Part shown: positions 1,302-56,093 of the stretch, one piece after another
Layout: every line of letters begins with the position of its first letter
Numbering within the stretch: position 1 is the first letter of the stretch
From: a virus
Virus record (IMG/VR): IMGVR_UViG_3300005530_000025
Coordinates: 4,179 to 68,178 of that record
Reading direction: 5' to 3' (one strand)
DNA: 64,000 nucleotides
Made by a program: the position numbers and the translations under genes
Notes under the pieces: generated by a model
The model's database searches: none
What the model saw: the letters and a program-made list of their open reading frames with translations, nothing else
Told to the model about the DNA's origin: nothing

Positions 1302-3605
1302 TCAGCCTCCCAGTCCCGTCCCGGCCTTTACGGAGCCATCCGGGAGGTAGATCGGATTGATGGCATTCGCCGGGTCCAGGGCGGACGGCCCGGACTGGAC
1401 CGAGCCCTCATGGCCGGGCTGCGGCGCGTTGTAGTTCAGCGGCACCGCGTAGGCGCTCCAGCCTGAGAACGGCCCGGTTCCGGCCTTGTTCAGCGCGGCC
1501 ACCCGGAACCGGTAGCCCTGGCTGTAGGGGGTCGAGCCGTCCGGCTTGTAGATCACCGGGGTGTTGGGGACCAGGCCCTGGGTGAAGACCGCGGTGACCG
1601 AGGACGGGTCGGCGCCATACCAGTACTCCGCCACCAGGGTGTCGCCGGCCTTCACGTTCTGCGAGCTGGCCAGGACCGAGATCCGGTACTGAGCCCAGGG
1701 GCCGATCCCGGTCTGGGTGATGGCGTAGTCGTAGCCCAGCTCCAGGACGGTGCCGTCCGGCTGCATCGGGTCGTTCTCGGTGCCGGTGGTGTTCCGGACG
1801 ATGACCTGACCGGGCGGGGTGACGATGCCGGTCCTGCTGGTAGTCGGCAGCGTGGTGTCGGACGCCGGCGGCGCGGCCCCGGTGCTGGTCGGCGGGGCCG
1901 TCAGCGTCAGCGCGGTGCCGATCGCGGTCGGGCTCCCTGCCGTCTGCTGCCGGGTCAGGGTCGAGCCGCCTGCCTGGGACACGTAGGCATACCAGCCGGC
2001 CGCCCCGGCCTCCGCCGACGGGCTCGGCACGGTCAGGGTCGAGGTGGCCGCGGTCGTGACCACGGTGCCCTGGGTGCTGGCCACTGTCTCGCCGTTGGCG
2101 TTGACGTAGGTCGCGGCAACCTTGTAGGTGCCGGCTGCCACGGTGCCGCCCGTGTCGGCCTTGGTCGGGGCCGGGGCGGACGGGGCCGCCAGCGCGGCCG
2201 TCAGGGCAGTGAAGGTATCGGCCTGGTAGGCGGGCTCGCCCGCCTGGGCGCCGCCGGAGGGCGCCGGCTGGCCGTCCATCACCGGCTGGCCGCTGGCCGG
2301 CACGTACATCGTGCCGCGGTCCTCGGCCTCCAGCAGGTAGCCATCCACCGGGGTGGTCCCGGACGGCGGGGCCCAGGCCAGGGACACGCCGCGGTTGACC
2401 GCGGTCGGCGTGGGGGTACCGGGAGCGGCCGGGACCGAGGCCGGGATGTTCGAGCCGTAGTAGGTCGCGTCCCCGTAGCTGTAGGTCACCGAGACGTTGT
2501 TGCCGGCCGCGAAGTGCGCTGCCACCTCCGGGCTGATGTAGGCGACGGTCTCCTCGCCGTTCCCGGCCGTGGTCACGGTGTAGTCCGTGCCGAGCACCAT
2601 CGCCTGGGAGCTGGTGGTGTTGGTCACCACGATCGAGGAGGGCACGACGCCCTTCTGGCTCAGGTACAGCCGCGATCCCGCGGCGGCCGAGGCGAAGGCG
2701 TCAGTCTGGCTGGCCAGCAGGGTCGGTGCGGCCGGGGCGCCGATGTAGCTCGTGTCGATCTGCCGGGCCGCGTAGGAGGAATCGACCGGCAGCGGGTTGG
2801 CATTCACCTGGTTGCCCAGGATGTCGGTCAGCGTGGTGTCCTTGTTGCCGGCCGCCACGCCCGACGACGGCGCCCGGTAGCCATTCGGGCTGGAGTACAT
2901 CGAGGGAACCAGGTTGCTGCCGCCGCTGTCCTGGGTGTCCAGGCTCCCGGTCAGGCCGGTGTCTGCCGGGGAGTAGTCCTCCGGCAGGCCGCCGCCGTAG
3001 ACGGCCTCGGTGTCCGGAGCGCCGCCGGCCCACCCGTAGGTGCCCGGGGCGCTCTCGGTGACCGCGTACTCGCTGCCAGGCGCTCCGGTCTCGGAGCCGG
3101 ACTGGGTGCCCATTGCCGGGTCGGTCAGCGACCCGTAGCCCGCGGCCGAGCCCAGGCCGCCCGCCGAGCCGCCCTCGGTGTCGGCATTCGAGGCCTGACC
3201 CTGGGTCCCGGCCGGCAGCGGCCCGGCGCTGCCCTGGAAGCCGCCGAACTCATACGACTCATCGCGCTGCATGCCGTACCGGTAGGTCACCTTCGCGGTG
3301 TCCGCATCGGCCGAGTCCGTGGAGGAGTTGATCCGGGTGACCGAGTAGGTCAGGCCCTCCGGCGCGCTGCCCGAGGGCGTCAGCGTGTAGTCGGTCCCGA
3401 GCACCAGCCGCTTGCTGGTAGTGGTGTCGAAGACCGAGATCACGTCAGCGGTGGGCGAGGGGCCCGCGGTCTCCAGGGCGGGCACCGAGACGATGCCGGC
3501 CTTACTCAGCGCCGCCGGGACGGTGTGGCTGAGCGTGATGGTGTCCACCTGCTCGACGACGCCCTGGGCGGGGACGCCATGGAAGTCGGCCACGCTGCTG
3601 GTCAT
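1302..3605 (-). CDS. Large Gly/Ser/Thr-rich structural protein with fibronectin type III-like elements
   Basis: VPAAPGTPTPTAVNRGVSLAWAPPS...GYLL and YRFRVAALNKAGTGPFS FN3 signatures; repeated LGTDYT motifs. Confidence 0.75.
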   Translation of the reverse strand: MTSSVADFHGVPAQGVVEQVDTITLSHTVPAALSKAGIVSVPALETAGPSPTADVISVFDTTTSKRLVLGTDYTLTPSGSAPEGLTYSVTRINSSTDSADADTAKVTYRYGMQRDESYEFGGFQGSAGPLPAGTQGQASNADTEGGSAGGLGSAAGYGSLTDPAMGTQSGSETGAPGSEYAVTESAPGTYGWAGGAPDTEAVYGGGLPEDYSPADTGLTGSLDTQDSGGSNLVPSMYSSPNGYRAPSSGVAAGNKDTTLTDILGNQVNANPLPVDSSYAARQIDTSYIGAPAAPTLLASQTDAFASAAAGSRLYLSQKGVVPSSIVVTNTTSSQAMVLGTDYTVTTAGNGEETVAYISPEVAAHFAAGNNVSVTYSYGDATYYGSNIPASVPAAPGTPTPTAVNRGVSLAWAPPSGTTPVDGYLLEAEDRGTMYVPASGQPVMDGQPAPSGGAQAGEPAYQADTFTALTAALAAPSAPAPTKADTGGTVAAGTYKVAATYVNANGETVASTQGTVVTTAATSTLTVPSPSAEAGAAGWYAYVSQAGGSTLTRQQTAGSPTAIGTALTLTAPPTSTGAAPPASDTTLPTTSRTGIVTPPGQVIVRNTTGTENDPMQPDGTVLELGYDYAITQTGIGPWAQYRISVLASSQNVKAGDTLVAEYWYGADPSSVTAVFTQGLVPNTPVIYKPDGSTPYSQGYRFRVAALNKAGTGPFSGWSAYAVPLNYNAPQPGHEGSVQSGPSALDPANAINPIYLPDGSVKAGTGLGG

Positions 3606-4920: not shown

Positions 4921-4982
4921 GCGCACCTCCCTCTATCCCTTCCGTGGGGAGGCGCTGGCTCGATAGCGGTGAACACGCTGGG

Positions 4983-5054
4983 AGGCCCCTCCGGGAGTTG
5001 AACCCGGCTGCGCGGCTTTGCAGGCCGCTGCCTCAGCCGCTCGGCCAAGGGACC
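4983..5054 (-). tRNA. tRNA-Cys(GCA)
   Basis: Cloverleaf; anticodon arm GCGGC-CT GCA AA-GCCGC. Confidence 0.9.
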
Positions 5055-5055
5055 C

Positions 5056-5132
5056 TGGTGAGCCTGGACGGACTCGAACCGCCGACCTTCTCCTTAGGGG
5101 GGAGTAGCTCTATCCGGCTGAGCTACAGGCTC
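5056..5132 (-). tRNA. tRNA-Arg(CCT), C33
   Basis: Loop CC CCT AA; Arg-type D loop; CCA encoded. Confidence 0.8.
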
Positions 5133-5133
5133 A

Positions 5134-5210
5134 TGGCGCCTCCGGTCCGACTCGAACGGACGACCTCTTGGTTCGGAACCAAGTGCGCTATCCACCTGCG
5201 CTACAGAGGC
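5134..5210 (-). tRNA. tRNA-Arg(CCG)
   Basis: CTTGG-TT CCG AA-CCAAG; CCA encoded. Confidence 0.9.
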
Positions 5211-5258
5211 TAGACGGCAAATGCCGCGTACTTCTCATCTAGGACGCTTGATCATGCG

Positions 5259-5340
5259 TGGCGAGACCAGGATTCGAACCTGGGAAGCACATGGCAGCTG
5301 ATTTACAGTCAGCCCTCGTTGGCCACTTGAGTACCTCGCC
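5259..5340 (-). tRNA. tRNA-Tyr(GTA)
   Basis: GCTGA-CT GTA AA-TCAGC; long variable arm. Confidence 0.9.
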
Positions 5341-5414
5341 TGGGGAGGACAGCGGATCCCGAGACCGCATCATCCGGTTCACAACCGGGCGCTCTGCCTT
5401 TGAGCTATGCCCTC
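5341..5414 (-). tRNA. tRNA-His(GTG), atypical T arm
   Basis: CCGG-TT GTG AA-CCGG; C73 plus CCA; T arm lacks TTCRA. Confidence 0.75.
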
Positions 5415-5416
5415 AG

Positions 5417-5490
5417 TGGTCGATGAAGGGATCGAACCTTCGGCCTCCCCGGTGTGAACGGGGCGCTCTCCCAAGCTGAGCTAACCGACC
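5417..5490 (-). tRNA. tRNA-Val(CAC)
   Basis: CCCCG-TT CAC AC-CGGGG. Confidence 0.9.
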
Positions 5491-5499
5491 TTGATAAGC

Positions 5500-5556
5500 T
5501 GGCGAGCGGGGATTCGAACCCCGGGGGCCGTCGCCCTTCCGCTCCGTGCTCTCGCC
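5500..5556 (-). ncRNA. 57-nt tRNA-like RNA lacking an anticodon arm
   Basis: GGCGAG/CTCGCC acceptor-like stem, T arm CGGGG-TTCGAAT-CCCCG, one short GGGC-GACG-GCCC hairpin. Confidence 0.55.
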
Positions 5557-5561
5557 AGTCG

Positions 5562-5634
5562 CACCCTCGACAGGACTCGAACCTGCAACCTGCCGGTCCG
5601 TAGCCGGCTGCTCCATCCGTTGAGCTACGAGGGT
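5562..5634 (-). tRNA. tRNA-Arg(ACG)
   Basis: GCCGG-CT ACG GA-CCGGC. Confidence 0.9.
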
Positions 5635-5712
5635 AGATCCCTGCTCGCGCCTTGGCGGGGCGCCTCCCTCCCGGGCCATCTCCGGTGGTGTCGAGGCGGG
5701 CAGGGGTCCGCC

Positions 5713-5787
5713 TGGTGGTCGCTGCTGGGATTGAACCAGCGGCCCCCTGCTTGTCGGGCAGGCGCTCTCCCGCTGAGCTAAGCGACC
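5713..5787 (-). tRNA. tRNA-Val(GAC), C33
   Basis: CCTGC-CC GAC AA-GCAGG; CCA encoded. Confidence 0.88.
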
Positions 5788-5894
5788 TTGCCGGCAGTAT
5801 TTCTCATCCCCGTCTCAGGGGACAGATACGGCAGGAGCAGCGCGGCTCCGGTGCACGGCCGCGGCTGGTGATACGCCCGGTGACTCCTGCCGGG

Positions 5895-5970
5895 CGGTCC
5901 TGACGGGATTCGAACCCGCGATCTTCAGCTTGACGGGCTGACGGGGACGACCAAACTCCCCTACAAGACC
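5895..5970 (-). tRNA. tRNA-Asp(GTC), C33
   Basis: TCAGC-CC GTC AA-GCTGA. Confidence 0.88.
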
Positions 5971-6066
5971 TCGTGCCGGACCTGTCGTGATCAAGGGGTC
6001 CGGTGTTACCTTATTGAATTGCCAATGACACCTGGCAATATACACGGACACGGAGGATACGGACCA

Positions 6067-6237
6067 ATGCGGAAGATCACCTCGCTACTCGCGGCCGGCG
6101 CTATTCTCGGCGCCGGGGCCTCGGTAGCTGCCCCCGGGGGGACCGTGCTGGCCGTTGCCCGGCCAGCCCCCACCCAGATCCTTGTCGGCCACGTCCTGGA
6201 CCACTCAGGCGGGCCTGACATCTTCTATCACGCCTGA
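6067..6237 (+). CDS. 56-aa putative secreted peptide, antisense to the tRNA array
   Basis: GGAGG RBS, AT-richer upstream region, Sec-type signal MRKITSLLAAGAILGAGASVAA. Confidence 0.65.
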   Translation: MRKITSLLAAGAILGAGASVAAPGGTVLAVARPAPTQILVGHVLDHSGGPDIFYHA

Positions 6238-6242
6238 CGTGC

Positions 6243-6317
6243 TGGCTCCCGCGGCTGGACTCGAACCAGCGCGCGTCCGGTTAACGGCCGGGTGCTCTGC
6301 CACTGAGCTACGCGGGA
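6243..6317 (-). tRNA. tRNA-Asn(GTT), C33
   Basis: CCGG-CC GTT AA-CCGG; CCA encoded. Confidence 0.88.
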
Positions 6318-6377
6318 CCGGCTAGCGCGGCCGGCCGTCCCCTGGGGGAGGGGCGGCCGGCCGCCCCCATTTCTGGG

Positions 6378-6454
6378 TGGTAGCGGGGGCGGGATTCGAA
6401 CCCGCGGCCTCCAGATTATGAGCCTGGCGAGCTACCGAGCTGCTCTACCCCGCA
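6378..6454 (-). tRNA. tRNA-Met(CAT), initiator-like
   Basis: CT CAT AA loop; 1:72 mismatch; GAGC/GCTC D stem as in fMet; CCA encoded. Confidence 0.85.
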
Positions 6455-6482
6455 TCGTGCTCCCAGGATAACCCCGGGATCG

Positions 6483-6554
6483 TAGCCCCAGCCGGTGCTG
6501 ACCCGGCGCCTCCGGATTGAAATTCCGGCCACCTGCCGTTAGTGAGATGGGGCC
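6483..6554 (-). tRNA. tRNA-Glu(TTC), atypical T loop GTCAGCA
   Basis: CCGGA-AT TTC AA-TCCGG; acceptor GGCCCCA/TGGGGCT. Confidence 0.7.
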
Positions 6555-6567
6555 CTGATGTACTGCG

Positions 6568-6639
6568 CAGCCTCACGGGGAGTCGAACCCCGGCTTGCTG
6601 GCTGAGAACCAGCCGTCCTGACCATTAGACGATGAGGCC
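6568..6639 (-). tRNA. tRNA-Glu(CTC)
   Basis: GCTGG-TT CTC AG-CCAGC. Confidence 0.9.
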
Positions 6640-6938
6640 TTAGCGGGAGCCTTCGAGCGCCGTCATGCCGGTGTGGCGGCGCCTGGTACTCAGCTCGCTG
6701 CGGCGTTGACTAGTCACCGCAGCTCGCCGCCGGCAGTCACCTTCCCGGTTCCCGTGTGGCACGTGCAGGGATCGGCTGACCCTTCCACCTGCGTTGCCTG
6801 GCCCTCGGTGTCAGCGCTGGGCCAGGTAGCGGACGCCGTGCTCCGCGCCCTGTCTGGGTGCCGGACTTGACCGATCCGGCAGAGACCTCGCTGCATGCCG
6901 CGATGCCACGGAGCCCGTCTGGAGTGGGCTAGTCTCTG

Positions 6939-7011
6939 CGCGCCATCCAGGGCTCGAACCCGGGACCGTCTCCTTAGAGGGGAGCTGCTCTGTCCGCTGA
7001 GCTAATGGCGC
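6939..7011 (-). tRNA. tRNA-Arg(TCT), C33
   Basis: CTCC-CC TCT AA-GGAG; Arg-type D loop, G73. Confidence 0.8.
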
Positions 7012-7017
7012 CTGGGG

Positions 7018-7089
7018 TGGGCCGCCCGGGGCTCGAACCCGGGACCATCCGATTAAAAGTCGGCCGCTCTGCCGCTGAGCTAGCGGCCC
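7018..7089 (-). tRNA. tRNA-Lys(TTT)
   Basis: CCGA-CT TTT AA-TCGG. Confidence 0.9.
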
Positions 7090-7090
7090 G

Positions 7091-7165
7091 TGGCGAGGGT
7101 GGGCCTCGAACCCACGTCCTTCGGTTTATGAGACCGCTGCTTGCGACCATCTCAGCTACCCCGCC
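7091..7165 (-). tRNA. tRNA-CAT (elongator Met or Ile2)
   Basis: CGGT-CT CAT AA-ACCG. Confidence 0.8.
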
Positions 7166-7235
7166 GGGTGGCACCGCGGCCCGGTACAGCCGTATCTCCG
7201 GGAGTGGCCTGGCCCAGCTACTCCGCGATGCCAAG

Positions 7236-7309
7236 TGGGCCCAGGAGGAATTGAACCTCCGGCCTCTTCCTTATCAGGGAAGCGCTCTAACCGGCTGAGC
7301 TACAGGCCC
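7236..7309 (-). tRNA. tRNA-Ile(GAT)
   Basis: CTTCC-CT GAT AA-GGAAG. Confidence 0.9.
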
Positions 7310-7349
7310 TTGCTTGTGTGAACTGTTGCGCCCGGGGAAGACGTGGCGC

Positions 7350-7517
7350 ATGTTCGCATTCATTGCAGCACTGCTGTTCGCCATCGCCACGCTCATCGCG
7401 TTCACCGCGCTGAACGGCGTCTCCGTGACCGGCCTGATCGCGGCCGGCCTGCTGTGCCTGACCCTGCACCTGATCGTGCCGGGTACCTGGGGCCCGTCCT
7501 GGATGCGGCGGGCCTGA
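7350..7517 (+). CDS. 55-aa two-TM membrane protein, antisense within tRNA array
   Basis: MFAFIAALLFAIATLIAFT...GLIAAGLLCLTLHLIVP; fills the gap between two tRNAs. Confidence 0.65.
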   Translation: MFAFIAALLFAIATLIAFTALNGVSVTGLIAAGLLCLTLHLIVPGTWGPSWMRRA

Positions 7518-7518
7518 G

Positions 7519-7605
7519 CGGCGAGGGTGGGATTCGAACCCACGGGGCCGTGAGGCCCGGTCGTTTTCGGGACGACTGCACTAGTCCGGGCTATGCGACC
7601 TCGCC
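7519..7605 (-). tRNA. tRNA-Ser(CGA), C33
   Basis: GTCGT-CC CGA AA-ACGAC; long variable arm. Confidence 0.88.
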
Positions 7606-7664
7606 TGGGTAGGGACCGCCGGGCTCTCGCTGGCCTGGCGAGTCAGGCCGCCTGCGCATCCCCG

Positions 7665-7749
7665 CGGGTGGTGCAGGATTCGAACCTGCGAGGGGTTGCC
7701 CCCGACCAGCTTTCCGGGCTGGCGCCATAAGCCGCTCGGCCAACCACCC
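7665..7749 (-). tRNA. tRNA-Ser(GGA), C33
   Basis: CCAGC-CC GGA AA-GCTGG; long variable arm. Confidence 0.88.
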
Positions 7750-7750
7750 A

Positions 7751-7835
7751 TGCAGGGCTCCCCAGCACCTCCTGCGGGAGCCCGCGGGACCGGGGGAGGC
7801 GACGGGATTCGAACCCGCCCGGGAGCGACCCTGCA
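7751..7835 (-). ncRNA. Permuted tRNA-like RNA 1 (reduced D region)
   Basis: TGCAGGG ... T arm GCGGG-TTCGAAT-CCCGT, CGCCTCC [linker] GGAGGTG acceptor-like stem ... CCCTGCA closing stem. Confidence 0.55.
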
Positions 7836-7838
7836 AAG

Positions 7839-7924
7839 AGGAGCGAGCGGGATTCGAACCCGCGAGGGGGCGACCCCTACCGCCTTAGCAGGACGGCGCC
7901 TTCAGCCACTCGTGCCACCGCTCC
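7839..7924 (-). tRNA. tRNA-Ser(GCT)
   Basis: CCGTC-CT GCT AA-GGCGG; long variable arm. Confidence 0.88.
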
Positions 7925-8106
7925 GGGGCGCGCCGCGGCTTGCCGTCGCCCGCGCGCACTGCACCTGCGTCACCGCCTAACGGACTTGGCTGGTATCCGG
8001 TGCAGCTGCCATAACCGCTCGCCCCGGCTCTCGCCTGGTACTGACAGGGCAGGCCTGGCCAGGCCGACTGCCCCGGGGCCGCCACGCCTCAACAGACAGC
8101 CCTGCG

Positions 8107-8190
8107 TGCCCAAGGGGAGACTCGAACTCCCACGGCCTCTCGGCCACTGCGGTCTGAGCGCAGCGCGTCTACCAGTTTCACCACCTGGGC
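8107..8190 (-). tRNA. tRNA-Leu(CAG)
   Basis: CTGCG-CT CAG AC-CGCAG. Confidence 0.9.
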
Positions 8191-8299
8191 ATGCGGACCG
8201 TTGCCGAGTTGCCAGACTCTCGGGTGATCATCTCCGGCTGCCGTCTGGCGGCGGCGCGAGCGATGATGAATCGGGGCCACGGAGCCTACAACCCCTTCG

Positions 8300-8370
8300 A
8301 GCGGAGAACGGGGATCGAACCCGTGCTGCCACCTTGGCAAGGTGGTGTGCTACCTCTACACCACATCCGC
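8300..8370 (-). tRNA. tRNA-Gly(GCC)
   Basis: CCACC-TT GCC AA-GGTGG. Confidence 0.9.
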
Positions 8371-8428
8371 ATGGCCGCCCGGGCCAGGATCAGCCCGGGA
8401 CTTACACCGCAAGGGGCCGGAGCCCCAG

Positions 8429-8500
8429 AGCCCAGGGTCGGGATTGAACCGACGACCCCTTCCTTACCGAGGAAGCGCTCTGCCACTGAGCTACCCGGGC
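8429..8500 (-). tRNA. tRNA-Thr(GGT), C33
   Basis: CTTCC-TC GGT AA-GGAAG. Confidence 0.88.
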
Positions 8501-8524
8501 GGGACCGGGGTTCAGCCTCCCCGG

Positions 8525-8749
8525 CTAGGCGGTGCCGAATCGGTCGAACTCTCCCAGGCGGGCGCCGCCGACGAATGCCTGCCACTCGGCGGGAGTAAAC
8601 CGGAGGACCGGGCCGCTGCTGTCCTTGCTGTCGCGGACCCCGATCATGCCGTCTGCGAGGCTGGCCACCTCGACGCAGTTGCCGTTGGCGAGGCTCAGTG
8701 AGGACTTGATCCAGTCCGGGGATGAGGCGGTGCCGGCGCTTCTTCTCAT
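8525..8749 (-). CDS. DUF397 domain protein (BldB/Scr2-like family)
   Basis: Signature WIKSSLSLANGNCVEVA...IGVRDSKD..GPVLRFTPAEWQAFVGGARLGEF. Confidence 0.9.
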   Translation of the reverse strand: MRRSAGTASSPDWIKSSLSLANGNCVEVASLADGMIGVRDSKDSSGPVLRFTPAEWQAFVGGARLGEFDRFGTA

Positions 8750-8782
8750 GCCGCCCCACCTTAGCTGAGATTCCCGCATTAG

Positions 8783-8854
8783 CTGAGGGAGCGGGCTTCG
8801 ATCCCGCGTTGCCCGGGCCAAAACCGAGTGTCCTGCCAGCTAGACGACCCCTCA
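8783..8854 (-). tRNA. tRNA-Gln(TTG)
   Basis: CTCGG-TT TTG GC-CCGGG; U1:A72. Confidence 0.85.
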
Positions 8855-8859
8855 CCGAG

Positions 8860-8934
8860 GGCCCCCGGCCGGACTCGAACCGGCATCTCGACTGCTTACA
8901 GGGCAGTCCCTCTCGCCAGTTGAGGTACGGGGGC
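8860..8934 (-). tRNA. tRNA-Thr(TGT), C33
   Basis: ACTGC-CC TGT AA-GCAGT. Confidence 0.8.
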
Positions 8935-8973
8935 AGGCCCCGGGCGCCTCCGCGGAGCCGGCATCCCGGGGTT

Positions 8974-9048
8974 GCAGGGCGCTCTGCACGCTGAGCTACC
9001 GGGCCGTGTTCCGCGGCCGGGCGGGACTCGAACCCGCGACCTCCCCGC
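8974..9048 (-). ncRNA. Permuted tRNA-like RNA 2
   Basis: Order: GCGGGG, AGGTC, T arm, CCGGCC, linker GCGGAACAC, GGCCCGG, TA, D arm GCTC-AGCGTGCA-GAGC, G, CCCTGC. Confidence 0.75.
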
Positions 9049-9050
9049 CG

Positions 9051-9134
9051 TGTCCGAGGCGGGACTTGAACCCGCACGCCCTGAGCGGGCACCAGCACCT
9101 CAAGCTGGCGCGTCTGCCGTTCCGCCACCCGGAC
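9051..9134 (-). tRNA. tRNA-Leu(GAG)
   Basis: CCAGC-TT GAG GT-GCTGG. Confidence 0.9.
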
Positions 9135-9303
9135 TGGTGGCCCCGGCCGTGCCCCGTAACAGTAGGCGCGGATGGGACCAGTATGCGTCAGCCAGGTCCA
9201 GAGCCATGACGGGGGCGGGCTCGGCGTTCACGTGGTAGCCCCTTAGCCCGCTACGTGTGCAGGTGTCCAGTACTGCTGGTCCATCTGGTCCTCTGGCTGC
9301 CAG

Positions 9304-9377
9304 AGCCTCCTCGCGGTATCGAACCGCGGGCCTCCGCTTTACGGGAGCGGCGCTCTAACCAGCTGAGCTAAGGAGGC
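9304..9377 (-). tRNA. tRNA-Thr(CGT), C33
   Basis: CCGCT-CC CGT AA-AGCGG. Confidence 0.88.
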
Positions 9378-9480
9378 GTGATCGTGCCGGGCCGCCGCCA
9401 TAAAGGCGGGCTTCGATACCAGGCCGGACGGTGGCGAGCCGCCGGCCGGGCACTCGGGAGGGGCCACCTCCACCCAGCTG

Positions 9481-9556
9481 CTGACCACCCTGGACTCGAA
9501 CCAGGACTATCTCCCGGTCCAGAGCCGGGCGGGTTTACCAATTCCCCCAGTGGTCA
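9481..9556 (-). tRNA. tRNA-Gln(CTG)
   Basis: CCCGG-CT CTG GA-CCGGG. Confidence 0.88.
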
Positions 9557-9625
9557 TAGTGGCGCGCGTTGCCCAGATCCAGTTAAAGGCTGGCCTGCTC
9601 CTACGCGCAATCGCCGGACACCTTG

Positions 9626-9699
9626 TGGGCGAGGCGGGGATCGAACCCGCACTGAAGCGCTTTTGGGGCGCTGCCTCTGCCGGTTGGAGCTACTCGCCC
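9626..9699 (-). tRNA. tRNA-Leu(CAA), short variable region, C33
   Basis: AGCGC-CC CAA AA-GCGCT; variable region only TCAGT. Confidence 0.75.
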
Positions 9700-9701
9700 G
9701 C

Positions 9702-9826
9702 GAGGAGCCGGGACGATCTTCAGGGGGTACGGCGCATCCTGGTCTCCCAGGTAGCCCTATCCGCCCGGCGCCACCCGGGCGAGCCGCTGACTTGGGTTCT
9801 TACCCTGAAGGCCGTCCCGGCCCCTC
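9702..9826 (-). ncRNA. Candidate structured ncRNA with ~24-bp terminal stem
   Basis: GAGGGGCCGGGACGGCCTTCAGGG pairs with CCCTGAAGATCGTCCCGGCTCCTC; begins just after the promoter at 9834-9861. Confidence 0.5.
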
Positions 9827-9833
9827 ACGAAGT

Positions 9834-9861
9834 ACATTACAGCTTTTCCTGCTAATGTCAA
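9834..9861 (-). promoter_or_regulatory. Internal promoter of the tRNA array (repeated promoter/operator family)
   Basis: TTGACA-TTAGCAGGAAAAGCTG-TAATGT. Confidence 0.7.
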
Positions 9862-9862
9862 G

Positions 9863-9938
9863 TACCCCGCCCGGGATTCGAACCCGGGACACGCGGATTA
9901 AGAGTCCGCTGCTCTGAACCAGGCTGAGCTAGCGGGGT
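9863..9938 (-). tRNA. tRNA-Lys(CTT)
   Basis: GCGGA-CT CTT AA-TCCGC. Confidence 0.9.
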
Positions 9939-9957
9939 AAGGCGGCCGGAGCCGCAG

Positions 9958-10030
<73 letters not shown>

Positions 10031-10196
10031 AGGCGCCACACTGACGCAGTGGCCGCGCGAGCTGGTGCCAGCTCGTAGGCACGAGACCAGGACATGTGCA
10101 CCCGCCCTGGCTTACCGCCCGGGAGCGACCCTGGCGGCCGACTCGGCTACCCCAACCAGGGGAACGCCCTGGCGGCACCTCGCCGTCGTGCCATCG

Positions 10197-10257
10197 CGCA
10201 GCCCCGGGAGTCGAACCCAGCCATCCGGTCAGGACGTGGCCACCACGGCCAGCCGCC
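10197..10257 (-). ncRNA. Miniaturised tRNA-like element
   Basis: GCGGCT/GGCTGC stem, GGCC-GTGGT-GGCC, CGTCC-TGACC-GGATG, T arm with TTCGACT loop. Confidence 0.4.
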
Positions 10258-10333
10258 TTTATCCAGGGAGCGTCACCCGGCCGGCCAGGCCGCCATTGCC
10301 CTGGATGCCAGGCCCGTCGATCGCCGGGCCGAG

Positions 10334-10423
10334 TGGGGCACCGGGAATCGAACCCGGTCATCCAGGCTGAACGCGCCATCGCGCGCCAGGTCCCCGGCCG
10401 ATCTGCCATTAAGGGTATGCCCC
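10334..10423 (-). ncRNA. tRNA-like element with extended, anticodon-less central arm
   Basis: GGGGCA/TGCCCC acceptor, T arm CCGGG-TTCGATT-CCCGG, central arm capped by CGCGC-GATG-GCGCG. Confidence 0.45.
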
Positions 10424-10474
10424 GCACGCAGGGTGCCCCCTGCGCTCCAGCAGGCCGCTGCGCAGACGGCCTCG

Positions 10475-10549
10475 TGGTCACTCTCCGGGTCGAACGGAGG
10501 ACCTCCCGGGTTTCAACCGGGCGCTCTTGCCAGCCTGAGCTAAGCGACC
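10475..10549 (-). tRNA. tRNA-Phe(GAA)
   Basis: CCCGG-TT GAA AC-CCGGG. Confidence 0.88.
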
Positions 10550-10557
10550 TTGATAGA

Positions 10558-10692
10558 GGCGGTGTCCTGCCAGTTGGACGACCAGGTACCAGCTAGTACT
10601 CGCCGGCTCCAGGGCTCCAGCTCCGGGTAGTACTCCCCTCGGCTGTCCTCCCGGACATAATCCTGGCCGGGATTCGGACCCGGATTTCCGCC
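10558..10692 (-). ncRNA. Permuted tRNA-like RNA 3 (long insert in acceptor linker)
   Basis: GGCGG, AAAT, T arm CCGGG-TCCGAAT-CCCGG, CCAGG, ~75-nt insert, CCTGG, TC, D arm GTCC-AACTGGCA-GGAC, A, CCGCC. Confidence 0.7.
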
Positions 10693-10695
10693 ATG

Positions 10696-10770
10696 TCGGG
10701 GTGGCCGGACTCGAACCGGCGACCTCATCGTCCCGAACGATGCGCGCTAGCCATGCTGCGCTACACCCCG
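10696..10770 (-). tRNA. tRNA-Pro(CGG)
   Basis: CATCG-TT CGG GA-CGATG. Confidence 0.9.
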
Positions 10771-10956
10771 TTGCGCCGGTATTTCCCCGGGCGGTCTGAT
10801 TGCGCAGCCGCTACCGGTTCACTCCCAATCGGCTAGACCGCCCCGGGCGCGGGCGGTCGGTCCCGTGCCGCGCGTACGTCGCGGTCGGGTGCCTGCACGA
10901 AACTGCCCCGCCGGGGTTTTCGCTGCCTCGTGCTATGGCCACGCCGGTCACTGCAT

Positions 10957-11026
10957 CCCTGGCGATACGGAATCGAACCGCGAGGTTCCCCTTGTGAGGG
11001 TCCTGGTCGCCAAGCCCTACCCAGGG
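10957..11026 (-). ncRNA. Degenerate tRNA-like element
   Basis: CCCTGG/CCAGGG ends, T arm GCGG-TTCGATT-CCGT, no canonical 7-nt anticodon loop. Confidence 0.35.
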
Positions 11027-11045
11027 CCGTGTGCCGGAAGTCTGA

Positions 11046-11113
11046 GGGGCGCTCTTGCCGTTGAGCTACCCAGCCGGTTAAGGCCGGGCCGGGACTCGAA
11101 CCCGGATCTCCCC
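11046..11113 (-). ncRNA. Permuted tRNA-like RNA 4
   Basis: GGGG, AGAT, T arm, CCCGGCC-TTAACC-GGCTGGG (7-bp closed acceptor), TA, D arm GCTC-AACGGCAA-GAGC, G, CCCC. Confidence 0.8.
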
Positions 11114-11116
11114 GGT

Positions 11117-11189
11117 GGCCTGCTCTGCCCGTTGAGCTACCGCACAGGAGCGACCTGAGCGGGCGGGATTCGAACCCGCATACCTGGCC
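11117..11189 (-). ncRNA. Permuted tRNA-like RNA 5
   Basis: GGCC, AGGTAT, T arm, CCGCTCAGG-TCGCT-CCTGTGCGG, TA, D arm GCTC-AACGGGCA-GAGC, A, GGCC. Confidence 0.8.
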
Positions 11190-11192
11190 TCG

Positions 11193-11266
11193 TCTGGATA
11201 GCAGGATTCGAACCTGCGGCCTCGTGCTCCCCGAGCACGCGCGCTGCCAAGCTGCGCCATATCCAG
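11193..11266 (-). tRNA. tRNA-Pro(GGG), C33
   Basis: CGTGC-TC GGG GA-GCACG. Confidence 0.88.
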
Positions 11267-11396
11267 ATGATGCGTGCCCTGGCGCCACCCCGGGAAGTCT
11301 GGGGACCGCTCCGGGTGTGGTGCCTGGGCTTCTGTCCCCGACCGGGCTATCCCAGTCCCGGTCAGGTTTCCTGGCGCCGCATCGCGCCTCGTCCTG

Positions 11397-11625
11397 GATG
11401 GTGCCGCCACTTCGGGCCGCAGTGCATCGCCCTGGTCGAGCTGCTCCGTGGACTTGACCACCAGGGCTGGCTCGTGCTCTGCGACCCTCCGCCAGGCCGG
11501 CCAAGGCCCGGTGCTCCCTGCCCCGCCCGGGGGGAGCACCCCTGGCTGGGTACCATGCCCCCAGGGACGCAGCCCGGGTGAGCAGGGACTAGCTCCGGGA
11601 GATCTCCCGAAGTGGCGGCACCATC
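11397..11625. repeat. 229-bp element bounded by a perfect 20-bp inverted repeat
   Basis: GATGGTGCCGCCACTTCGGG (11397-11416) / CCCGAAGTGGCGGCACCATC (11606-11625). Confidence 0.8.
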
Positions 11626-11717
11626 GTCAACGTCGCGCTCCCGGCCCGGTTAAGGACCAGGACTTTCCCCCGGTGGGCCCCTGGGGGTCGGGAGGCCGGC
11701 CCACGGCCTCACGCGAC

Positions 11718-11795
11718 TGGTCGGGGTGGCGGGATTCGGACCCGCGGCCTCCCGCTCCCAAAGCGGGCGCTCTTGCCTGGCTGAGCTACACCCTG
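11718..11795 (-). tRNA. tRNA-Pro(TGG)
   Basis: CCCGC-TT TGG GA-GCGGG; T loop TCCGAAT; CCA encoded. Confidence 0.88.
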
Positions 11796-12035
11796 TCAGG
11801 CCCCCCGGGGGGCCGGGTTGCCGCCCGGCCAGCTCCCTGAGTCGCCCTGGAGCCAGTCTCACGCACCGTGGCATCCGGGCGCGCTGGCTCCTGTCTCTGA
11901 AGTGGAGTGAGGGCGTTCCTGGCAGCTTGCTTCCGCGCAGGCGAGTGTGATTGCTCTCGGGGGTATTTATCCCCGTCTCCCATTGATCCGGCCGTGATCG
12001 CGGCCGGGGCGGTGATCAGCCGCCGCTCCCTCACG

Positions 12036-12108
12036 TGGACCATCCGGGAGTCGAACCCGGCGCCTCTCCCTTGCGAGGGGAGCGCTCTACCAGCTGAGCT
12101 AACGGCCC
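12036..12108 (-). tRNA. tRNA-Ala(CGC)
   Basis: CTCCC-CT CGC AA-GGGAG; G3:U70. Confidence 0.9.
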
Positions 12109-12272
12109 TTGCGCGGGTGACCGGTCCCGCAGGCGTATCGCGTCTGGCATCCGGCTGGCAAGCCGGCCAGTGTCCGCCACTACCTGCGGCCGTGAGGGGG
12201 CAACCCTGCCTATGCCTGATCCCTCATTTATCTCGCTGCCGTCCCGGTGCCACCCGGGCCGGCGCGAGCCTG

Positions 12273-12346
12273 TGGAGCCTGCGGGAGTCGAACCCGCGAC
12301 CTCTTGTCTGCCGAGCAAGTGCTCTACCGAGCTGAGCTAAGGCCCC
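12273..12346 (-). tRNA. tRNA-Ala(GGC), C33
   Basis: Loop TC GGC AG; G3:U70. Confidence 0.85.
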
Positions 12347-12618
12347 GCGGCACCGATGTGCTGCCGCCACCCTGGCCGAGGCCAGGGCCGCCACCCCTGC
12401 GGTGCGATGCGATCCCGGCGGTCAGGCCGGGACGGCGGCGGCACGGTGCTTGCCACTGGCGCGGCCTGAGCCGCGCACTCGGCATCTTCGGGCGGCCGGG
12501 CCTCGGGTGGACGATTGGCATTCGTCCGGCCGGGCCGCCTCATGTTCACCGCTATTGAGCTGTCAATTTACGAGCCGGTTGCCCCGCCGCGGCTCTCGCC
12601 TTGGCCTGGGTGGCTGCG

Positions 12619-12691
12619 CAGGGACCGTAGGAATTGAACCCACATTTCGCTCGGGTTGGAGCCGAGCCGCCTACCCTCTGGCTGATCCCCT
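12619..12691 (-). tRNA. tRNA-Trp(CCA)
   Basis: CTCGG-CT CCA AC-CCGAG; imperfect acceptor stem. Confidence 0.75.
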
Positions 12692-17370: not shown

Positions 17371-18399
17371 TCAACTCTTCGTGATCGACGCCAAGCCCCT
17401 CGGATTCAGGATGTTCATGGCCACCATCTCGTCGAAGACCCAGCCCTTCCAGAATGCCTCGACGTTGTGGTTCTCCTCGACATCCAGGGAGTACAGGATG
17501 GGGAAGACGCCCAGGAAGTTGGGCTCGGGGGCCAGGAAGATCTTCGCCTGCGGGACGATGATCGAGCGCTGGATCTGGAACTCACCGAAGCTGGTGATGG
17601 TCTCGCCCGCAACCACCCGGTCCTTGAAGGCCCAGCCGGTCTGGTTGATGTCCCACCGGAACATGTCCCGGTAGTCGAACGGGTTGATCAGGATCCGCGC
17701 CGACGGCAGCTCGTGCAGGTCGGTCATCGCCACGGCCGAGTACAGCGAGCCCGGGGTCAGGTAGCCCGACGCCTCGGTGATGTTGTGGTTGGGGGTGACC
17801 ACGTGGTCGGGCCGGGTGGCGTAGTCGGTGATCGCCGCCTGGAGGAGCACCAGCAGCCGGGCGTCCTCCTGCTTCAGGATCGCCTGCTTGGTCTCGTCCT
17901 GGGCCTGCTCGACCGCGTTGATCCGCAGGTAGAACAGGTCCTCCTTGCGGATGGCCGGCCGGCTCGCGATCCGGAAGAACCGCACCGGGATGCGCTTGCC
18001 CTCGAACGGGGTCACGCGGACCTCGCCCTCGGTGCCGCTCAGGATGTAGGCCTGGCCCAGGTCGTCCCACACGTCGTACTCGACTGGCGTGCCCGGCGTG
18101 ACCGGGTCCTCGACCAGCACGTTCCGGACGATGCCCTGGTAGCGCAGCTTCAGCTGGATGGGGCCGACCATCCCGACGCCGAGACGGCGGAAGCCGTGCA
18201 TCTCGTCGGAGAGGATGAGCGCCATCTTGCGGACCTTGGCCTCGCGCGTGAGCCCTACGCCGTTCGTCCGAGACCGGCGGGCCTCGATCTGGGCGACGTA
18301 GTCATCGCTCTTGCGGGAGGCCACTCGCGGACGCAGGCCGCCGCCTTGCGGCGCCAGCGCCAGCTGCCCGCCAGCCGAAACGGTGGCCAGCTCGTTCAT
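17371..18399 (-). CDS. Major capsid protein (HK97 fold, Bxz1-like)
   Basis: 342 aa; MVGPIQLKLRYQGIVRNVLVED, QAILKQED, C-terminal GWVFDEMVAMNILNPRGL; follows decoration and protease genes. Confidence 0.88.
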   Translation of the reverse strand: MNELATVSAGGQLALAPQGGGLRPRVASRKSDDYVAQIEARRSRTNGVGLTREAKVRKMALILSDEMHGFRRLGVGMVGPIQLKLRYQGIVRNVLVEDPVTPGTPVEYDVWDDLGQAYILSGTEGEVRVTPFEGKRIPVRFFRIASRPAIRKEDLFYLRINAVEQAQDETKQAILKQEDARLLVLLQAAITDYATRPDHVVTPNHNITEASGYLTPGSLYSAVAMTDLHELPSARILINPFDYRDMFRWDINQTGWAFKDRVVAGETITSFGEFQIQRSIIVPQAKIFLAPEPNFLGVFPILYSLDVEENHNVEAFWKGWVFDEMVAMNILNPRGLASITKS

Positions 18400-48026: not shown

Positions 48027-49266
48027 TTACTCCTCCTCCGTTCCCGCGGACACGAAGGCCTGCACGGCCCTGTCTGCCTCGCGGACGGTGGCATAGGCAC
48101 GGTTAGCAGACGGGTGCCGGACGCGGCTGTGCGTGCCTCCTGCGGCCAGGTAGAGGCCGCTGCCGGGACCACTCCAGGCCAGCTTCAGCGAGGTATCCGG
48201 CAGGGCCCACTCCTGCGCGCCGAATGCCAGCGGGGTGCGCTGCGCCCTCGCGGCCATCAGCGTGCCCCGAGGACCTGAAGGCCGGCCCGGGTGATCTCGT
48301 AGCCGTGCTCGCGGGAGCCGGCCGCCAGGCCCATCCGCAGCAGCTCGTCAGCGAGTGCCAGGGCGGGCTCGCTCAGCGGTCCGTGCGGGGAGGACATGAT
48401 CACCCGCAGCGTGACTGCCTGGACGTGGTTCAGCTCCGGCGCCAGGCGCGTCACCCGGATGAGCCTGTCCGGGTGCACCGTGATGCCCCAGGCGGCCTTA
48501 TAGGCGCGCTCGGATGTGTCGGCCGAGGCACTCAGCCAGGTCTCGCCTCTCGTCACCACGGGGTGGCTGTAGGGCTCAACCCGGGTGATGCGATGCACCT
48601 TGCCCAGGAACTCGTAGTCATCGCCCGGGCGCACCTCCGACCCGGGCACCTCGACAGTGATCACTTCAGGCATCGTCATCCTCCAGGGACAGCTCGTAGC
48701 GGAACTTCGAGAAGGTGTGCGTGCCGGGGCAGTCTGCGTGGCCGGCCGGGCCCGAGGTGTCGCAGCCCTTCAGCTCGGACTGCACCAGCGGGCAGTTATC
48801 GCCCCGGCGCGCCCAGGCGGTCAGCACGTAGTAGCGCTCCGGGTCAGGCTGCGTGCAGGACGAGGCCACGGTCAGGGCCTCCAGTCCGCCCTCCGCGGCG
48901 ATCGCGGCCAGGTACTCCTCACGGGTGATCGTCTCCCAGCGGCCGGGCCAGCCGGAGGCGTCAGTGACGCGGCCGGGTGCAGTGTCAGGCACCGGGGGCC
49001 TCCCTCGTGGCTGCGGCCAGGGCAGCGTCCATGCGGCGGCTGCCGGCCCGGAAGCGCTTGGCCTGGCCCTTGCAGTGGTCGCAGCAGTAGCGCGCCCTCA
49101 GCGGCAGCACGGAGCCGTGCAGCCTCCCGAGGAGCGCCAGGCGCCGCTGGTCCCCGCGGACCTGGTCCAGGTCGGTGAGGCAGTTGCCGCAGTGCCGCGG
49201 GCACGGGCAGCCGGCGGCGTGGTAGCCCACGGACGGGTCGTCGTACAGCCAGGCGGTCTCAGCCAT
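48027..49266 (-). CDS. Run of small hypothetical genes (48027-48257, 48257-48679, 48666-48992, 48985-49266)
   Basis: Coupled ORFs downstream of the PAPS reductase-like gene. Confidence 0.55.
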
Positions 49267-50083
49267 TCCAGTTCGCCGCCTGCACCGCGATGCCGGCGGC
49301 CGTGGCAGCCTGCGCCTTCGCGATGATCTGCCGCATCGAGCGGCCGTTCTGGAAGGTGTGGCCCATCCGCTCCTCCAGCTCGGCGCGGATCTGGGCGCCG
49401 CGGGGGTTGAGCTGGGCGGCGCGCACCAGGGCCTTCTCGCCAGCCAGAACGCAGAACATGCAGGACAGGCGCGGCATCCCCTCGTCGTAGATGTGGTGGT
49501 AGCGGATGCGGCTGACGCAGATGTCGTCCCACACCTCGCGCTCGGTCATCTCGTGGATGGGCAGCCAGGTGTCCACGTGGCGGCGGCCGTTGGTGGCCCG
49601 CTTGTCGTGGCTGAAGACCTTCAGCAGGGCCCGCTTCGGGCTCTCGGAGGCGCGCATGCCCATGCAGTTCAGGATGCGGACCGGGCGGGTCATGCCCAGG
49701 GCGCGGACCTCAGCGGACAGCATGGTCATCACGGTGGCGATCGGGTCGCGCTTCAGGTCCGAGGTGCAGTAGCGGTTCTTGGCGTCCGGCCACATCCCGC
49801 GGCGCTCGATGTGCTCCAGCAGGCCGACGGGCTCGCCCTTGCTCTCGCCCTTGCGGACCTTGATGAACCGCAGGCCGTAGTGCTCAGCGTGGTAGCGCGC
49901 GATCTCCTCGGTGCCGGGCCACTCATCGGCCTCGCCCAGGTCCGCGAACACGCACACGAGCCTGGAGCGCTCGACCCCGGCCGCGTCGGCCAGGCGCACG
50001 ACCCGGCGCAGCATGGTCTGGGAGTCCTTGCCCCCGGAGATGTTGCACAGAATCCGGTCGTACCAGGTGATCGGCTGGTCCAC
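49259..50083 (-). CDS. PAPS reductase-family (PP-loop) protein
   Basis: NISGGKDS, RYCTSDLKRDP, GMRASESPKRA, GMPRLSCMFC; GAGGAGG RBS. Confidence 0.85.
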   Translation of the reverse strand: MDQPITWYDRILCNISGGKDSQTMLRRVVRLADAAGVERSRLVCVFADLGEADEWPGTEEIARYHAEHYGLRFIKVRKGESKGEPVGLLEHIERRGMWPDAKNRYCTSDLKRDPIATVMTMLSAEVRALGMTRPVRILNCMGMRASESPKRALLKVFSHDKRATNGRRHVDTWLPIHEMTEREVWDDICVSRIRYHHIYDEGMPRLSCMFCVLAGEKALVRAAQLNPRGAQIRAELEERMGHTFQNGRSMRQIIAKAQAATAAGIAVQAANWNG

Positions 50084-50117
50084 GGTGCCTCCTCGTCGTC
50101 CGTCCCTTGCAGATTCC

Positions 50118-50221
50118 ACATTACAGGATTTCTTGCTATTGTTCAACCGGACGCACAGGCACGGGCAAGAGAGCGCGTCATGACGCACCGGCTTGCTCGT
50201 TAGCAAGAAAACTCGTAACCT
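50118..50221. promoter_or_regulatory. Divergent pair of repeated promoters
   Basis: Minus: TTGAAC-AATAGCAAGAAATCCTG-TAATGT (50118-50146); plus: TTGCTC-GTTAGCAAGAAAACTCG-TAACCT (50193-50221). Confidence 0.75.
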
Positions 50222-50242
50222 AGACGTGACGCGAGGAGACGC

Positions 50243-50908
50243 ATGGACGAGAGCACCGAGCAGGCCATCGCGACGGTCGTGGCGAGCGGGAACAGCGACA
50301 GCGAGTCCATCCGGCTGGCCCTGCTGGCCCGCGGTCACATCGTCAGGCACGAGGCACTGTGCGCCATGCTGCTCACGATGGGCGAGCAGCACCACCTGAT
50401 CTGGTGGCACCTGGGAGCCTGGGTGCCGGCGAACGAGCCGTCAGGCACGGCCCAGAAGCTGGACGAGACCATCTCCGGCCTGCTGGAGCACGCGGCCCCG
50501 GCGCTGCTGACCGCGCACCAGGTGCAGCAGATCCTGACGGCCCGCGGCGAGCGGCAGAGCATCAGCGCCATCACCATGTCCGCCAGCCGGCTGGCTCACG
50601 AGGGCAGGGCCACCGCGGGGTCAGCCGGGCTGCGTGGTCACCTGGCCTGGGGATGGCGCGGCGAGACCAGCTCCGAGAAGGGCTGCCGGAAGATCCTGGA
50701 GATCATGGCGCCCCTGAAGACCGGGGCCAGCGGCCGGGACCTGCGGAATCAGCTACAGCAGGACGGCATGAACGTGACCCGCGAGACCGTGCAGTGCTGG
50801 CTGAGCACGCTGATCCGGGAGAAGGCCCTGGAGGCCGCTAAGTACGGCTACGTCATCACCGACGCCGGCCGGATCCGGATCGGGCTGGACCCGGAGGGCA
50901 CATCATGA
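50243..50908 (+). CDS. Tandem winged-HTH DNA-binding protein
   Basis: Repeated wHTH-like units, ending YVITDAGR. Confidence 0.6.
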   Translation: MDESTEQAIATVVASGNSDSESIRLALLARGHIVRHEALCAMLLTMGEQHHLIWWHLGAWVPANEPSGTAQKLDETISGLLEHAAPALLTAHQVQQILTARGERQSISAITMSASRLAHEGRATAGSAGLRGHLAWGWRGETSSEKGCRKILEIMAPLKTGASGRDLRNQLQQDGMNVTRETVQCWLSTLIREKALEAAKYGYVITDAGRIRIGLDPEGTS

Positions 50909-56079: not shown

Positions 56080-56093
56080 GAGAGCGAGGCGGC

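Follow-up and report, generated by a model that had tools for sequence, protein, structure and literature searches.

With respect to position 33, held to be a near-invariant U in elongator tRNAs, 14 of the 37 tRNA genes (38%) on a 64,000-nucleotide stretch of viral DNA (positions 4,179 to 68,178 of the IMG/VR virus record IMGVR_UViG_3300005530_000025; hereafter called the window) carry a C instead, 13 of them in the anticodon loops as drawn by ARAGORN and the fourteenth, tRNA-Arg(TCT), after re-registration of its loop. This observation is real, specific to position 33 and recurrent across the clade to which the window belongs. The cause of C33 is not settled. The explanation that we favour, with a little less than even confidence, is that position 33 in these phage tRNAs is a weakly constrained pyrimidine site that is driven to C by G + C pressure. 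Escape from host anticodon nucleases is ranked second, and a block of anticodon-loop modification, decay of the genes and RNA editing follow in this order; weak constraint and nuclease escape are not mutually exclusive.

The window comprises 64 kb out of a 68-kb record that is rated 43% complete, has a G + C content of about 70% throughout, and is a fragment of a myovirus, a soil phage. ARAGORN finds 37 tRNA genes, every one of them on the minus strand, and all 37 reach the gathering cut-off of the Rfam tRNA family (RF00005, 29 bits). An earlier, sequence-only reading of this DNA had counted 14 C33 genes amongst 38 tRNA genes: the 14 stand, and the list of their anticodons is matched exactly, whereas the total has to be lowered to 37. 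The 38th gene of that count may be a further tRNA-like match at 11087-11141 which, with 26.2 bits, stays under the cut-off. The 14 C33 genes (Table 1) cover ten amino acids, and all of them are elongators.

Table 1. Coordinates of the C33 tRNA genes and of other features in the window and, where a record or locus is named, in its relatives
Feature	Position	Strand	Anticodon loop	C33 at	Rfam score (bits)	Remark
tRNA-Arg(CCT)	5056-5132	minus	CCCCTAA	5099	58.2	
tRNA-Val(GAC)	5713-5787	minus	CCGACAA	5756	65.9	
tRNA-Asp(GTC)	5893-5970	minus	CCGTCAA	5935	57.3	
tRNA-Asn(GTT)	6243-6317	minus	CCGTTAA	6286	58.9	
tRNA-Arg(TCT)	6938-7011	minus	CCTCTAA	6979	53.6	Pyl-CTA in ARAGORN
tRNA-Ser(CGA)	7518-7605	minus	CCCGAAA	7570	43.4	
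tRNA-Ser(GGA)	7664-7749	minus	CCGGAAA	7716	52.6	
tRNA-Thr(GGT)	8428-8500	minus	TCGGTAA	8469	61.5	
tRNA-Thr(TGT)	8859-8934	minus	CCTGTAA	8901	55.4	
tRNA-Thr(CGT)	9303-9377	minus	CCCGTAA	9344	60.4	
tRNA with anticodon CAA	9625-9699	minus	CCCAAAA	9666	41.6	Leu by anticodon
tRNA-Gly(TCC)	9957-10030	minus	CCTCCAA	9998	48.4	
tRNA-Pro(GGG)	11192-11266	minus	TCGGGGA	11233	60.9	
tRNA-Ala(GGC)	12272-12346	minus	TCGGCAG	12313	58.3	
Array of 37 tRNA genes	4979-12690	minus				between head and tail genes; ARAGORN and Rfam
Repeated tRNA-like element	8976-9046 and 11018-11190					both copies match L081 7222-7371
Sheath-like protein	1302-3605					Pfam/PHROGs scans
Major head protein	17371-18399					Pfam/PHROGs scans
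PAPS-reductase-like protein	49259-50410					
NADAR-domain protein	52645-53226					
C5 cytosine DNA methylase	56076-57236					
L082 tRNA array	G002:C1:86800-97300					
RtcB (L081/L105)	G001:C1:135893-136990					inside tRNA array; E 2e-117
RtcB (L106)	G005:C1:132758-134827					near array; match split (profile 1-50, 48-426) in a 760-aa frame, as an intein would give

The loop register of the C33 genes is unambiguous. In the register chosen by ARAGORN, the loop of tRNA-Arg(TCT) reads CTCTAAG on a stem of 3 bp, whereas a shift by one base in the 5' direction yields the loop CCTCTAA on a stem of 4 bp, which is identical to the anticodon stem of the neighbouring Arg-CCT paralogue and confirms the anticodon given to this gene before. 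In the other 13 genes the C33 register allows for 4-5 stem pairs, and registers off by one base for 0-3. ARAGORN garbles C33 anticodons also outside the window, as it assigns a two-base anticodon to a tRNA-Thr(TGT) gene of the relative L090 (5288-5361), so that spurious suppressor tRNAs may arise in automated annotation where C33 triggers such errors. For the tRNA with the anticodon CAA it is the amino-acid identity that is uncertain, because amongst this gene and its orthologues a long variable arm is found only in the relatives L082 and L083 and in none of the other six of eight arrays.

Within the window, the replacement of U by C is specific to position 33: in contrast to 14 of 37 genes at this position, none of the 37 has C at U8 and only one each at U54 and U55 (14/37 versus 2/111 for the three positions together, p = 3.5e-8, Fisher's exact test). 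An assembly error is not the source of C33, since the contig pieces listed for the DNA runs X1 and X2 cover all 14 sites and no differences are listed there. The genes were also described as otherwise intact in the sequence-only reading, and in this respect C33 genes are indeed as well formed as U33 genes. Their Rfam scores (41.6-65.9 bits) all lie above the gathering cut-off, with a median, as read from the score tables, of about 57.8 bits compared to about 57.5 bits for U33 genes, and mean stem pairing in the clade is 6.77/7, 4.82/5 and 4.98/5 for C33 compared to 6.79, 4.87 and 4.96 for U33 tRNAs. Amongst the other invariant features of the 37 window genes, G18G19 and C56 are present in all, T54 in 35 and T55 in 36; U33 is missing from 14 genes, and the remaining features of RF00005 still place them as tRNAs.

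A related head protein is encoded by 193 IMG/VR stretches, and the arrays of seven close relatives were compared with that of the window. As the arrays begin farther downstream, the 10-kb flanks around the head gene held just 23 tRNAs, and the arrays were then located by whole-record searches; with the sheath protein as query, only five loci were obtained. Distant relatives, with head proteins 81-88% identical, have only five to nine tRNA candidates and were left out, as was G004, the 166-kb record behind L018, which is rated complete and has a head protein 95% identical but zero tRNA candidates, whereas G005 of nearly equal size has 39. The anticodon order is nearly the same in the seven relatives and the window, so that orthologues were paired by position. 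In addition to the 14/37 of the window, C33 is found in 4/33 tRNAs of its sister L081 (record G001), 3/41 of L084, 9/38 of L082, 3/40 of L083, 6/39 of L090, 12/39 of L085 and 5/39 of L086, i.e., in 7-31% of the tRNAs of the seven syntenic relatives and in partly different isoacceptors in each phage, with C33 in Val(GAC) recurring in four of the seven arrays.

For the counting of switches, a tree was built from the tRNAs minus position 33. The partial array of L088 (four tRNAs) stands outside the tree and the lineage counts, only orthologous groups with at least four members were used, and extra copies outside these groups (a CTG gene of L085, CGG genes of both L083 and L085, and two doubtful calls from L084 and L090) are part of the per-array totals. 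Position 33 has switched between U and C at least 37 times in 39 orthologous groups on this tree (38 times if counted on alignment columns). The resulting 0.97 switches per group are similar to the values for positions 32 (1.03), 38 (1.18) and 57 (0.97), about three times those for U8 (0.31) and U54 (0.36), and about half of those for stem positions (1.2-2.2), with U55 at 0.59 and C56 at 0.03. In all of the 290 cells of the orthologous groups position 33 is T or C. The number of switches per isoacceptor agrees with a Poisson expectation (mean 0.95, variance 0.94, p = 0.48), by which no isoacceptor hot spots are evident in the eight arrays, and no link was found between C33 and codon use (p = 0.28). 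Both CAT tRNAs have U33 in all eight phages.

The identity of orthologous tRNAs across these phages is 45-98% (mean 71%), compared to 94-98% for their head proteins, and between the window and L081 the identity ranges from 53% to 98% gene by gene, which suggests that single tRNA genes in the array may be subject to fast and mosaic turnover. In L082, moreover, C55 replaces U55 in 15 of 38 tRNAs (T loop TCCGAAT and similar), compared to 0-2 in each of the other seven arrays, which adds a burst in a single lineage at another 'invariant' U. Across the arrays, C55 occurs in 22 of 309 tRNAs, 15 of them in L082, C54 in seven and C8 in four. U-to-C replacement in these phages therefore extends to invariant sites besides position 33.

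In cultured phages, the proportion of C33 ranges from 0 to 7%, with 2/27 in Alice (Val-GAC and Val-CAC), 1/34 in Myrna (Val-GAC), 1/42 in Pumpernickel and 0/12 in JustBecause. Of 205 phage records that match the C33 Val(GAC) gene of Alice, 193, Bxz1 included, do so with an identity of at least 99%. The records are mostly cluster C mycobacteriophages, and a C33 tRNA-Val is essentially fixed in this cluster. As to cellular tRNAs, the RtcB protein of a relative has its nearest counterparts in Pseudonocardiaceae and further soil actinobacteria (61-68% identity), and a complete Lentzea genome was for this reason alone taken as a stand-in host. In this stand-in, 64 of 65 distinct tRNAs have U33, none has C33, and U54 and U55 are present in all 65; the 65th tRNA, with G33, is a doubtful call. 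High G + C content alone therefore does not yield C33 in cellular tRNAs.

According to the explanation by weak constraint, phage DNA would be under very strong G + C-biased substitution pressure, and phage tRNAs would be under weaker purifying selection than cellular tRNAs because they duplicate what the host already supplies. Under such pressure and weak selection, U to C, as presumably the mildest replacement at position 33, would become fixed again and again and sometimes revert, and C33 tRNAs would remain working genes whose products are aminoacylated and take part in decoding, though probably with a slightly lower efficiency. The explanation draws on the recurrence of C33, its restriction to pyrimidine exchange, the intact cloverleaves, the lack of C33 in a host-like genome and the relation to G + C content, all of which are observed. 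With respect to the latter, the proportion of C33 in 12 phage tRNA sets correlates with tRNA G + C content (Spearman 0.83, p = 0.0008, relatedness ignored), whereas inside the clade alone there is no significant correlation (rho 0.55, p = 0.16). At position 33 the ratio C/(C + T) amounts to 0.38 for the window and 0.19 for the clade, compared to 0.84 and 0.91 at synonymous sites and 0.72 in array spacers; U is accordingly still preferred at position 33, as the share of C lies far below that at neutral-like sites. The loop context points in the same direction: C32 accompanies C33 in 44 of 56 tRNAs compared to 147 of 246 with U33 (p = 0.009), A37 in 51 of 56 compared to 177 of 246 (p = 0.002), and groups with G at position 36 have fewer switches (4 in 10 groups versus 33 in 29, p = 0.04), and this preference for C32, A37 and non-G36 suggests that function limits where C33 is tolerated. 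The sequence-only reading had doubted that G + C pressure under relaxed selection could suffice. Given the G + C trend, the even distribution of switches and the C55 genes of L082, this explanation is better supported than had been assumed, and the doubt is justified only in so far as pressure alone fails to explain 14 versus 4 C33 genes at equal tRNA G + C content.

This last comparison is the first of several observations that weigh against weak constraint as a full account, as the tRNA G + C content is equal in the window and its sister L081 (0.666 and 0.662). Between these two, U to C exchange at position 33 is skewed 9:1 in favour of the window, in contrast to 59:54 for T/C exchange elsewhere in the tRNAs (p = 0.023). 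With a rate of 9/28, position 33 compares with 59/389 for the remaining T sites (p = 0.03) and 62/344 for those spacers that can be aligned (p = 0.08), and since this rate is at least that of the spacers, selection against C33 is undetectable in the window lineage. Similarly, the flux at position 33 between L085 and L086 is 7:0, and the lineages are heterogeneous in their numbers of C33 tRNAs (chi-square 22.3, 7 df, p = 0.002, relatedness ignored). L082 has seven C33 tRNAs with a window orthologue, and in every case this orthologue is C33, too (p = 0.0004), even though the two phages are not sisters and the seven gene pairs are only 63-81% identical. In addition, the near-identical C33 Val(GAC) genes of the 193 records occur in phages of lower G + C content, and C33 may carry a cost, because a U33C phenotype of yeast tRNA-Gln was taken as poorer decoding in the work described in PMC3664417.

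These bursts are what the second explanation would predict, by which C33 would shield phage tRNAs from anticodon nucleases of the host for which U33 is the cleavage site or a requirement, while the tRNAs of the host are destroyed, so that many genes would switch at once in a lineage that encounters a host of this kind and repair by RtcB would serve as an alternative strategy. We regard it as possible, with a probability well short of even. The bursts are found in three non-sister lineages (window, L085 and L082), whose sisters have only 4/33, 5/39 and 3/41, respectively; exchange at position 33 is one-sided while the T/C background is even; and the window and L082 have seven C33 isoacceptors in common. 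An RtcB RNA ligase is encoded inside the array of the sister record G001 and a second one in G005, where the C33 shares (4/33 and 3/41) are the lowest or near-lowest, and no RtcB lies within the 64 kb of the window, in G002 or in G003. Amongst known nucleases, PrrC is described to cut 3' of U33 (PMC2610378) and activated Cas13b to cut after uridines and to excise U33 of E. coli tRNA-Val(GAC) (2026 preprint), Val(GAC) being the tRNA with the most persistent C33 in these phages; that loop changes in phage tRNAs might block host tRNases is itself a published idea (PMC10264068).

However, C is still the minority state and far under the neutral expectation, the switches show no isoacceptor hot spots, and G003 has only 3/40 C33 tRNAs without having an RtcB; the relation between RtcB and C33 share is mixed across only four complete genomes. 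The absence of RtcB moreover covers the window only, and the gene may lie elsewhere given that the record is 43% complete. According to published data, gamma-toxin cleaves a stem-loop with C33 as it does the wild type, and colicin E5 retains activity after a U-to-C substitution at this position. That tRNA cleavage is a real pressure on this clade is nevertheless probable in view of both the C33 bursts and the RtcB ligases of the relatives. Tentatively, C33 could be regarded as an adaptive and general resistance to RNases acting at or after U33 which is gained in bursts upon encounter with a host that has them and traded off against an RtcB in the array, with C55 as a similar escape; if so, the near-universal U33 of cells would be a standing target of bacterial immunity.

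It is improbable that C33 acts by blocking a modification of the anticodon loop, with altered decoding or the loss of a mark needed by a host factor as the consequence. tRNA-guanine transglycosylase requires U33-G34-U35, and Asp-GTC and Asn-GTT are amongst the three groups with the most switches (three each). With respect to t6A37, E. coli TsaBCDE forms no t6A on a U33C initiator tRNA and C33 is described as an anti-determinant of the bacterial modification (PMC8887486), and the 14 C33 tRNAs include six readers of ANN codons (Arg-CCT, Arg-TCT, Asn-GTT and the three Thr tRNAs). However, the other eight are not ANN readers, further tRNAs for ANN codons (Ile, both Met and Lys-CTT) never switch in the eight phages, and groups with T36 are not clearly enriched for switches (15 in 12 groups).

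Even less probable is that the C33 genes are decaying pseudogenes without use to the phage: the orthologous tRNAs do evolve fast in comparison with the head protein, but stems, G18G19, T loop and Rfam scores of C33 genes match those of U33 genes, paired stems of C33 orthologues survive many changes (as in the Val-GAC alignment), and position 33 is restricted to pyrimidines.

Editing of the genomic C33 back to U by a cytidine deaminase of phage or host, a second option of the sequence-only reading, is the least probable of all and is unsupported. Methanopyrus kandleri tRNAs undergo C8-to-U8 editing by CDAT8, and this analogy and the otherwise intact C33 tRNAs are what speaks for it. In the window's record and four complete relatives, neither PF00383 nor PF14437 has a match (0/5 each; controls matched in 12/14 genomes, and host enzymes were not searched), and the listed contigs of two rhizosphere RNA libraries that hold most of the array, X3 (11 sites) and X5 (six sites), cover 12 of the 14 sites without any C-to-U difference being listed, although contigs drop minority variants and may derive from precursors or carried-over DNA. 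The single difference listed over 7.9 kb of RNA-library contigs, at 10481, is off the C33 sites. The X3 contig over 10776-12448, the promoter-proximal end of the array, has a depth of 70 compared to 4-21 for the other listed pieces, with the DNA runs flat at about 10, which hints at transcription of the array in the rhizosphere samples.

Two further ideas were set aside, namely a phage nuclease that spares the phage's own C33 tRNAs, as only 38% of the tRNAs are C33 and no such gene was seen, and C33 as a way to U-free loops, as only four of the 14 loops are without T.

In addition to the proteins in Table 1, the window encodes a cement protein and a large head-maturation-like protein, and its head protein shares 58-60% identity with its counterparts in cluster C mycobacteriophages and some Gordonia phages. 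Pfam and PHROGs scans of 30 window proteins revealed no RNA-editing, RNA-repair or nuclease genes. The whole array has no near match among 50,697 phage records, where only single tRNAs are matched. The repeated tRNA-like element within the array gives weak matches to YrlA (Y RNA-like; 33-34 bits at a cut-off of 69) and to tRNA (26 bits).

A literature search for U33 and C33 found no paper describing C33 in phage tRNAs, which is no proof that there is none, and in the passages of reviews that address exceptions to U33, only eukaryotic initiators (C33) and Candida tRNA-Ser (G33) are named. Here a whole phage clade uses either U or C at this position, with up to 38% C33 per genome, and this bears both on the extent to which the U-turn needs a U and on why phages carry tRNAs at all. 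Surveys of tRNAs may undercount or misname C33 tRNAs in view of the ARAGORN errors in the window and one relative. Since a C33 tRNA-Val is present in about 200 sequenced phages, most of them grown on Mycobacterium smegmatis, the function of C33 is already open to laboratory tests.

Amongst known systems, Methanopyrus kandleri likewise has many tRNA genes with C at a conserved U, position 8, which becomes U in the RNA; the phage differs in that no deaminase was found in the records searched and no U appears in the RNA-library contigs. The cluster C mycobacteriophages (Bxz1, Alice and Myrna; Ceeclamvirinae) resemble the window in being myoviruses with a head protein 58-59% identical and 27-34 tRNAs, but have only 1-2 C33 tRNAs per phage (2/27 and 1/34) compared to 14/37, a lower tRNA G + C content (0.60-0.62 versus 0.67), and an array that sits elsewhere in the genome. 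For a related phage group, van den Berg et al. 2023 (PMC10264068) describe phage tRNAs that, as here, differ from those of the host inside the anticodon loop. There, however, the differences concern known VapC-type cleavage sites in particular tRNAs, whereas here one universal position is affected in many isoacceptors; the main text of that paper has no mention of U33, C33 or position 33, and its supplementary loop lists for cluster C1 may already show the C33 of tRNA-Val. Finally, the cytoplasmic initiator tRNA-Met of multicellular eukaryotes is reported to have, like the phage genes, a natural and functional C33 (PMC5041475, PMC8887486, PMC11122139), but in eukaryotes it is the initiators that carry C33, while in these phages it is the elongators, with both CAT tRNAs keeping U33.

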